Positions 24,578 to 25,135 are shown, counted from the stretch's first letter. The stretch is 56,846 nucleotides of DNA from a virus (IMGVR_UViG_3300010397_000012:1-56846), one strand, 5' to 3'. Translations and numbers: made by a program. Notes: a model not told the origin generated them from the letters alone.

Positions 24578-25135
24578 GGCAAATTGGGCGTGGAATGGAG
24601 TGGTCCAGTTAGGCTCGGAAAGTCGAGGCCTGTATTTGCAGGCGGGGCAAGTCGGGGCAAGACACGGTGGTGACTGTTCTGGCTGGTTGGGGCAGGAGTG
24701 GATTGCAGACGCGAGATTGGGTAAGTCCGGCCATCGTGTGGACCTGCAGGCAAGTCAATGAATGCCGAGTAGGTCTATGGTGAGGCGCGGCCTGGCCTGG
24801 CCTGACACTGCAGGTGCGGTCAGGCGAGACGTGATGCGGCAATGTACGGCCCGACATAGTCGGGCAGGCGCGGAGAGGTAAGGCACAGCGCGGACGGGCA
24901 AGTAATTGCACAGCAGGCGTGGTCCGTCGTGTTGTTGTCGGGTCCGTCACGGCTTGTTACGGTGAGGCAGGCGTGGAAAGGCAGGATCGGGCTAGGACAG
25001 GCACGGCGCGCGACGGCAGGCTAGTCAGGGCAAGGAGTAGATGGAAGAGCAGGCCATGACCGGTGTGGCATGTCGCTAAATGGCAAGTTCTCGGTCGGGC
25101 AGGTCTTGTCAGATGTTCGGCATAGGAGCGGTGCA
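24578..25135 (+). ncRNA. Phased pentamer array (GGH-NN)n in ~10 units separated by NGCA; putative guide-RNA array
   Basis: NGCA junctions at 24578, 24637, 24691, 24745, 24809, 24863, 24912, 24966 and 25015 (spacings 59,54,54,64,54,49,54,49, all 5n+4); degenerate units follow at 25048 and 25098. Confidence 0.85.

Follow-up and report, generated by a model that had tools for sequence, protein, structure and literature searches.

The analysed sequence, referred to here as the window, is the whole 56,846-bp record of a contig from an uncultured soil phage. In this genome a 672-nt non-coding gap separates an ORF of 150 aa, which ends at position 24571, from a zinc-ribbon ORF that starts at position 25244. 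The gap is rich in guanine (37% G, with a GC skew of about +0.3). The genes located 3' of it encode, in this order, an HNH protein, a fusion of a ParB-like domain with a methyltransferase, TerS (Terminase_4), TerL, a fusion of a protease with the major capsid protein, and the portal protein. Judging by its sequence, the stretch from 24572 to 25170 is the guide array of a Viral Interference Programmable Repeat (VIPR) locus, and it is preceded by the genes vipr and vap (Table 1).

Comparison of the gap with Rfam yielded no family at the gathering thresholds, the single match, to a lncRNA, being spurious (E 2.3), and searches of the gap for tRNAs and tandem repeats returned nothing notable. DNA searches of phage collections, performed with the gap and with a 14-kb region, gave no match.

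Table 1. Features of the vipr locus, neighbouring genes, and sites of the phage genome that were compared with the guides. V0-V10 are units of the array parse; names in brackets (U2-U5) are those of the initial annotation.
Feature	Position	Strand	Remarks
vipr	23478-24122	+	predicted single-RRM RAMP protein, 214 aa; C-terminal glycine-rich loop GIGEGRP...GMGWG
vap (vipr-accessory protein)	24119-24571	+	150 aa; start overlaps the vipr stop by 4 nt; matches phrog_15946
Putative staggered vrRNA array	24587 to ~25136	+	about ten units (V0-V9) and the doubtful V10; GG(Y)NN pentamers
V0	24587-24640	+	unit parse
V1 (U2)	24641-24694	+	NN string GG AA GG AA AC GG CT CT TG GG, decoding to G[KN]G[KN]TGLL[CW]G
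V2 (U3)	24695-24748	+	decodes to V[FL][DE][DE][CW][KN]R[IM]VP
V3 (U4)	24749-24812	+	12 guide NN, decoding to [KN][KN][IM][DE]G[IM][DE]ALLLT, then boundary unit TGCAG
V4 (U5)	24813-24866	+	decodes to A[HQ][DE]VA[KN]TP[IM]R
V5	24867-24915	+	unit parse
V6	24916-24969	+	unit parse
V7	24970-25018	+	unit parse
V8	25019-25051	+	unit parse; 6 NN
V9	25052-25101	+	unit parse
V10 (doubtful)	25102-25136	+	unit parse; 7 NN
Terminator-like hairpin and tail	25124-25170 (hairpin 25124-25160)	+	15-bp stem, then T-rich tail; consensus scan
Zinc-ribbon ORF	25244-25603	+	small CxxC protein
ParB-methyltransferase fusion gene	26041-27312	+	
Own TerS stretch QAEWEARIVP	27447-27476	+	EWEARIVP at 27453-27476; compared with V2
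Own TerL Walker A motif GSGKSPFGAG	28144-28173	+	compared with V1
Own TerL nuclease-domain motif KHIDGVVATLMA	29476-29511	+	homologous to the external targets of V3; partial match
Protease-major capsid fusion gene	29841-31829	+	
Own portal motif ASDIAKLRIK (residues 67-76)	32322-32351	+	homologous to the external targets of V4; tblastn register puts L278 and L279 at residue 67
Glycosyltransferase-like gene	34399-35034	+	PHROG match, phrog_4603 'alpha-2,3-sialyltransferase'
Glycosyltransferase-like gene	35675-36394	+	PHROG match, phrog_1962 'glycosyltransferase'

The zinc-ribbon ORF lies directly 3' of the putative array terminator, and its matches to Anti-TRAP/RtpA-like proteins are all below threshold (Pfam E 0.0012, 19 bits against a cut-off of 32; NCBIfam E 0.14). 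Further downstream, a ParB-like N-terminal domain is fused to an N6/N4 DNA methyltransferase. The prohead protease (Peptidase_S78), fused to the major capsid protein, is encoded 5' of the portal gene, an unusual order that is also found in three contigs targeted by guide V3 (L268, L272 and L276). The head module contains glycosyltransferase-like genes, located just 3' of the portal gene and an adjacent gene.

The Vipr and Vap proteins

According to the available text of three 2026 bioRxiv preprints (10.64898/2026.04.26.720920, 10.64898/2026.04.26.720927 and 10.64898/2026.10.15.759431), VIPR systems have a vrRNA composed of GGYNN repeats that is coated by Vipr protomers; its NN dinucleotides pair with DNA of the form NNx, in which the base passed over is at the codon wobble position, and the resulting complex silences the transcription of rival mobile elements. 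The targeting rule and the thresholds applied here follow the same three sources.

The likeness of the vipr product to the Vipr protein of phage SUSP1 is detectable by profile only. A profile built from 30 homologues aligned with chain 36pp_D of the PDB ('SUSP1 Vipr protein') at E 5.1e-11, covering profile positions 22-202 and residues 4-187 of the 202 in the chain, while the single sequence gave E 0.0038 over the G-loop region. The AF2 model of the protein has a pLDDT of 89, and its top Foldseek matches are RAMP proteins of the Cas7 family (Cmr4 and Csm3, E 2e-5 to 1e-3). Residues G185, G189, R194 and G202 are invariant among the 30 homologues. The product also matches phrog_4652, and no match was found in Pfam, NCBIfam or PADLOC. 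The gene is thus predicted to encode a minimal RAMP protein with an RRM core and a G-loop, that is, a Vipr protein.

The RAMP fold with a G-loop is shared with the backbone proteins of Class 1 CRISPR-Cas complexes (Cas7, Csm3, Cmr4; Foldseek E about 1e-5), and both kinds of system would form a helical protein filament on the guide RNA, with pairing that is periodically interrupted. Unlike Class 1 CRISPR-Cas, the locus described here is devoid of CRISPR repeats and spacers, cas1, cas2, a large subunit and a nuclease; a VIPR guide is read at 2 nt in 5 against 2 in 3 of the target, and the carrier is a phage. Tandem Repeats Finder and a repeat search of the gap revealed only short degenerate repeats, and the neighbouring genes are phage genes, which does not agree with a CRISPR-Cas locus.

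The vap gene adjoins vipr, and the two co-occur in related loci. The AF2 model of its product (pLDDT 83) comprises an N-terminal winged-helix-like domain followed by a long C-terminal helix. Residues 1-99 were aligned by VIA-align with many winged-helix domains at Z-scores of 5-7, which is weak. The sequence was assigned to no family in Pfam, NCBIfam or PADLOC, the best matches being BilA in PADLOC (E 0.004) and, both far below the Pfam threshold, NHase_alpha (E 0.082) and DUF6767 (E 0.35). A Foldseek comparison of the model with the PDB gave no match at E 0.001 or better, and in BFVD it matched only uncharacterised phage proteins. On the basis of the predicted fold, Vap may be a DNA-binding accessory protein of Vipr.

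Occurrence of the module in other genomes

With the 150-aa Vap protein, 241 related loci (L001-L241) were gathered from IMG/VR, metagenomes and species-representative genomes. In almost all of them a G-rich pentamer array adjoins the vap homologue on the same strand, either downstream or upstream of it. The logo constructed from 807 sites in 69 distinct arrays has GG at frequencies of 0.74-0.88 each 5 nt, followed by C at 0.5-0.6 and by two positions with near-even composition. Clustering of the flanking ORFs identified a 214-aa protein of the Vipr family as the sole conserved neighbour of vap, the contexts of the module being otherwise varied. Of 209 non-redundant loci, 120 have a called gene immediately upstream of vap, and in 78 of these it belongs to the Vipr family. 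The vipr gene, vap and the array always lie on one strand in these 209 loci, and their order varies (A B array, A array B, or array A B, where A and B stand for the two genes).

A search with the vap profile (A1) retrieved at least 586 relatives in metagenome contigs, at least 580 in IMG/VR contigs, and 103 in species-representative genomes. The hosts named in the record titles include, among the matches listed, Elusimicrobiota, Acidobacteria, Firmicutes, Actinobacteria, Proteobacteria, candidate phyla and one Methanosarcinales archaeon. The module formed by vipr, vap and the array is very widespread. Homologues of Vipr annotated as 'hypothetical protein' are also present in cultured phages, namely Cyanophage Cy-LDV1 (52% identity), Gordonia phage Ecliptus, and many phages of Mycobacterium smegmatis (Donkeykong, Saal and Quico; about 32% identity). 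These cultured phages offer tractable hosts for studying this clade.

The distribution of the module bears on the view that the G-rich stretch is not a guide array but a DNA-level site, such as a terminase or cos recognition site, a centromere, iterons or G-quadruplexes, to which the winged-helix protein would bind. The position of the stretch just 5' of the HNH-terS-terL module, its strand asymmetry, its richness in G and the predicted winged-helix fold of the adjacent protein would all suit such a site. However, in other phages the module occurs in varied contexts where its only conserved neighbour is a RAMP protein, a homologue of Vipr, and a DNA site does not predict that NN dinucleotides match foreign coding sequence, in codon register, at 23/24 bases, as described below for V3. 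We regard this view as barely credible. Individual candidates of this kind (a cos or terminase-binding site, a centromere, iterons and G-quadruplexes), together with a CsrA/TRAP-like protein-binding RNA, were dropped since the neighbouring protein is a Vipr homologue, and the stretch is treated below as a guide array.

Structure of the guide array

The units of the array are 5k-1 nt long and end in xGCA/G, and the pentamer register shifts by -1 about every 50 nt, at xGCA/GG junctions. Unit lengths of 49, 54 and 64 nt fit the spacing peaks seen across loci (44, 49, 54 and 59 nt) and the regular array of locus L075. Staggered arrays, in which consecutive vrRNAs share 1 nt, the last of one being the first of the next, are described in the legend to fig. 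S18 of 10.64898/2026.04.26.720920; compared by this legend alone, a 1-nt overlap fits the 5k-1 units and the xGCA/G junctions, both here and in L075. The initial annotation had assigned the guides to positions 24641-24862, of which the start coincides with that of unit V1, while the end lies 4 nt before the unit boundary at 24866.

The pentanucleotide periodicity of the gap is pronounced. Distances of 5, 10, 15, 20 and 25 nt between GG dinucleotides occur 27, 25, 22, 18 and 18 times, respectively, against about 5 in shuffled sequences, and the summed 5-nt GG periodicity was reached by none of 500 shuffles of the gap. The hexamer GGCARG is found 12 times on the + strand of the gap and 0 times on its - strand; the rest of the genome (56 kb) contains it 63 times on the + strand. 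The gap may accordingly be described as a putative GGY/NN (YNNGG) pentanucleotide array that flanks vipr and vap on the same strand. At its 3' end it is probably closed by the hairpin listed in Table 1, acting as a terminator; a consensus scan of the region detected 6 terminator-like sites, compared with a shuffle mean of 1.9.

The scaffold of the array is degenerate. Only about 60% of the pentamers start with GG and fewer have GGY, the number of GGY per unit ranging from 1 to 8 among 6-13 pentamers. In V3 the GG scaffold of the first six pentamers (24749-24783) is degenerate (GTC, TGA, GCC, GTA and TCT), and all six of their NN dinucleotides match the TerL targets described below. The base that precedes NN in this unit is a pyrimidine in 10 of 13 cases. 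The repeat read in this clade may be a YNN-centred variant rather than a strict GGY. The fit of the V3 dinucleotides to their target in spite of the degenerate scaffold argues that the NN code is under selection.

The C-rich strand opposite the array contains long open reading frames, at 24609-24950, 24388-24753 and 24957-25280, and another is located at 1703-2362 of L001, all on the - strand. Such antisense frames grouped across loci as 'families' 2-5 in crude gene calls. They are artefacts of composition, which gene callers may mistake for proteins.

Comparison of the guides with the phage genome

For comparison with coding sequences, the NN dinucleotides of the GG(Y)NN pentamers were laid on codon positions 1 and 2, following the one-base-skip rule of VIPR. 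The initial annotation had reported partial matches of three guides to homologous sites in the phage's own genes, and its counts were reproduced exactly: 6/12 dinucleotides (17/24 bases) for V3 at the terL site, 5/10 (12/20 bases) for V4 at the portal site, and 4/10 (11/20 bases) for V1 at the Walker A motif. The four own-gene peptides that it named (KHIDGVVATLMA, ASDIAKLRIK, GSGKSPFGAG and EWEARIVP) were located where it had put them. Its remark that an extra residue in the phage's own TerS breaks the register of V2 also holds, the match being 5/10 dinucleotides (10/20 bases) when aligned on RIVP and 2/10 (8/20 bases) when aligned on EW. A naive period-3 reading of the raw array, which is the wrong model, gave only 4/12, 3/10 and 4/10 at the own sites.

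The three matches differ in how often they are equalled on the + strand of the genome. At least 6 dinucleotides of V3 are matched at 2 of 56,811 positions, the terL site among them, and at least 5 of V4 at 18 of 56,817. For V1 at least 4 dinucleotides are matched at 178 of 56,817 positions, so that its match to the Walker A motif is not distinctive.

Scanning of the whole genome in the unit register gave a best self identity of 0.65-0.70 for every unit with at least 10 NN, values equalled by 41-98% of 200 shuffled guides. For V3 the highest self score (17/26, with the boundary unit counted) is shared by the phage's own terL motif and two unrelated sites. The doubtful unit V10, with 7 NN, reached 0.86, and 52% of its shuffles reached the same. 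A register-free scan in all 5 phases, with windows of 8, 10 and 12 pentamers, found no perfect match, with maxima of 15/16, 18/20 and 20/24; the means per window are those of the shuffled null, and the hits at 18/20 and 20/24 are out of register with the GG scaffold. The exhaustive gapped scan called for by the initial annotation thus yielded no perfect self-match in any register. At the amino-acid level, where the decoded guides were compared with the six reading frames of the phage, V3 alone has its top match at the proposed site, with a score reached by 16% of shuffles; the proposed sites of V1, V2 and V4 were not the top matches. Self-targeting at 80% NN match or more is predicted for none of the in-register units with at least 10 NN.

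Probable targets in other phages

An exact scan of IMG/VR with the central 9-NN core of V3 retrieved 9 contigs, in 8 of which the match extends to 21-23 of 24 bases, in frame, within a TerL gene (23/24 in L270-L274, 22/24 in L275, and 21/24 in L268 and L276). The targeted codons encode NKIDGIDALL, the C-terminal nuclease motif of TerL, at the position homologous to the phage's own motif, where V3 matches 17/24. The TerL genes concerned are 28-31% identical to that of the phage.

Exact matches to the 8-NN core of V4 numbered 20 in IMG/VR, 6 of them at the portal codons homologous to residues 67-76 of the phage's own protein. Over the full guide these six sites score 17/20 (L278, L286 and L288) or 16/20 (L279, L280 and L287), against 12/20 at the own site; agreement at the four positions that the exact core leaves out is at chance level. 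The contexts of the remaining 14 hits are varied and unrelated. Two of these hits reach 18/20 (L281 and L294); they run antisense to a tail gene, with the skip at the first codon position, and so look like chance. When up to 3 mismatches were allowed, V4 was not found in any of five complete records containing V3 core hits. For V1, V2 and V4 the exact 9-NN cores found 0 hits each in IMG/VR, which serves as a rough chance control for an 18-base pattern.

V2 had been thought to be aimed at TerS. Its best external match, 16/20, is the prohead-protease motif VFNEWTLIGP of G006/L280, a score reached by none of 100 shuffles; in L279 this site is matched at 15/20. Second in G006, at 14/20, comes the TerS motif AKAEWERMVA, which is without the extra residue of the phage's own TerS. 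With up to 3 mismatches V2 was absent from four records. V1, proposed to be aimed at the Walker A motif, scored at most 15/20 at G.GK[ST] sites, partly forced by the motif filter; with no exact hit of its core in IMG/VR, that assignment is unsupported.

Contig G006 (42 kb), whose TerL is 53% identical to that of the phage, is matched by three adjacent guides. V3 matches its terL at 18/24 and V4 its portal gene at 16/20, and the values of V2, V3 and V4 were reached by 0, 0 and 3 of 100 shuffled guides, respectively. These best hits fall in the protease-portal-terL block, a single head and packaging block on which the three guides thus converge. Genes for TerL and the portal protein are present in the target contigs, some of which also carry HNH or the protease-MCP fusion, and the proteins of these contigs are 23-53% identical to those of the phage. 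The best targets of V3 and of V4 are different contigs, and a single rival matching all guides was not found among the contigs compared.

Comparison of all guides with 267 fetched loci (1.68 Mb) gave best identities of 0.73-0.82 for units with at least 10 NN, and up to 0.92 for the 6-NN unit V8; the matches in these loci are read as chance, and for V0 and V5-V9 no target was found in them. The dinucleotides of V3 (23/24 in five TerL genes) and V4 (16-17/20 in six contigs) appear to specify their targets by the one-base-skip rule, with the skip on the wobble position.

The initial annotation had suggested that the array is aimed at the homologous packaging sites of rivals while sparing the phage itself, which implies external targets better than the self matches. 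This is borne out for V3 (21-23/24 externally, 17/24 in the phage) and V4 (16-17/20 and 12/20); for V2 it is plausible, with the guide re-assigned to the protease motif, and for V1, with no target found, it is unsupported. In terms of identity, V3 and V4 match conserved terL and portal codons of other phages at 0.80-0.96 and V2 matches the protease motif at 0.80, whereas the homologous codons of the phage itself are matched at 0.50-0.71, which is the level of chance.

The same contrast weighs against autoregulation, in which imperfect pairing of the guides with terS, terL and the portal gene of the phage itself would time late expression, and rivals would not be attacked. It is true that the top self hit of V3 is the own terL motif, and that V3 and V4 decode to motifs of genes which the phage itself carries. 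Nevertheless, the self identities of 0.50-0.71 are indistinguishable from those of shuffled guides, and the external sites reach 0.80-0.96. Moreover, in the available text of 10.64898/2026.04.26.720920 natural targets are called at an NN match of 80% or more, the published surveys give no self hit at or above this cut-off, and disturbed NN pairing abolished silencing. The partial self matches are accounted for by protein homology between the phage's own genes and the targeted ones. Autoregulation seems highly unlikely.

The degenerate scaffold raises a further alternative, namely a decaying or orphaned array, a VIPR relic whose units no longer work and whose external matches are historical. 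Both the small number of GGY per unit and the lack of an identified target for most units would fit such decay. Yet vipr and vap are intact and conserved, V3 retains 23/24 even across degenerate scaffolds, and the array ends in a strong terminator-like hairpin. Frequent internal degeneracy of repeats is also noted in the discovery paper, whose classification Methods list the alternative repeats NNNGG, YNNNG and NNNNG (10.64898/2026.04.26.720920). A relic is improbable on these grounds, and a working guide array directed against other phages remains the preferred reading.

Proposed function and relation to known VIPR systems

Most likely, the VIPR guide array spares its carrier and silences the late genes for head formation and packaging in competing phages or prophages, a reading to which we assign a probability of roughly 0.85. 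By analogy with the published mechanism, the array would be transcribed together with vipr and vap or just after them, and Vipr protomers would polymerise on each vrRNA unit, one protomer per pentamer. Each protomer would hide the GG(Y) scaffold and present the NN dinucleotide, and the resulting filament would bind double-stranded DNA reading NNxNNx..., with the skipped base on the codon wobble. Occupation of the target DNA by the filament would repress its transcription. That a match of 0.71 spares the phage itself we infer from the published cut-off of 0.80.

The locus resembles the Type II VIPR systems of Escherichia phage SUSP1 and a Pseudomonas fulva prophage, as far as these are described in the available text, in having a Vipr RAMP protein, a small, predicted DNA-binding vap product and GGYNN-repeat RNAs encoded on one strand. 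Shared as well are the one-base-skip reading on the wobble position, targets in rival mobile elements, and no self hit at 0.80 or above. The vrRNAs of SUSP1 are described as about 100 nt long, each with a 3' pseudoknot tail, whereas the units of the present array are 49-64 nt long, abut with a 1-nt overlap, and are tail-less, with one terminal hairpin. The targets given in the same published text are a satellite recombinase, prophage regulators and other VIPR loci; here they would be the terL and portal genes and probably protease motifs. VIPR systems having already been described, the novelty of the present locus is modest and consists of the packaging-gene targets and of the tail-less array with a degenerate scaffold.

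The first descriptions of VIPR date only from 2026, and its natural targets have been established in few clades. The locus provides an independent natural example from an uncultured phage. The one-base-skip code is visible in it at 23/24 bases, in codon register, in a tail-less staggered array with degenerate scaffolds, and the guides appear to be aimed at genes for structure and packaging in other phages (terL, portal and probably protease). At homologous codons the identity is 0.60-0.71 for self and 0.85-0.96 for the best rivals, a contrast by which mismatch tolerance could be measured.

It is possible, though we hold it doubtful, that the VIPR clade with a winged-helix vap and tail-less staggered arrays specialises in shutting down the late operon of rival tailed phages. 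The guides of such a clade would be aimed at the most constrained codons, those of the TerL nuclease, portal N-terminal and prohead protease motifs; one guide would cover many lineages, and synonymous change would offer no escape. The carrier would be immune through drift of its own motifs at the amino-acid level (KHIDGVVATLMA versus NKIDGIDALLLA). If this is true, the sequences of conserved packaging motifs in phages would be shaped by pressure from VIPR, a force hitherto unrecognised.
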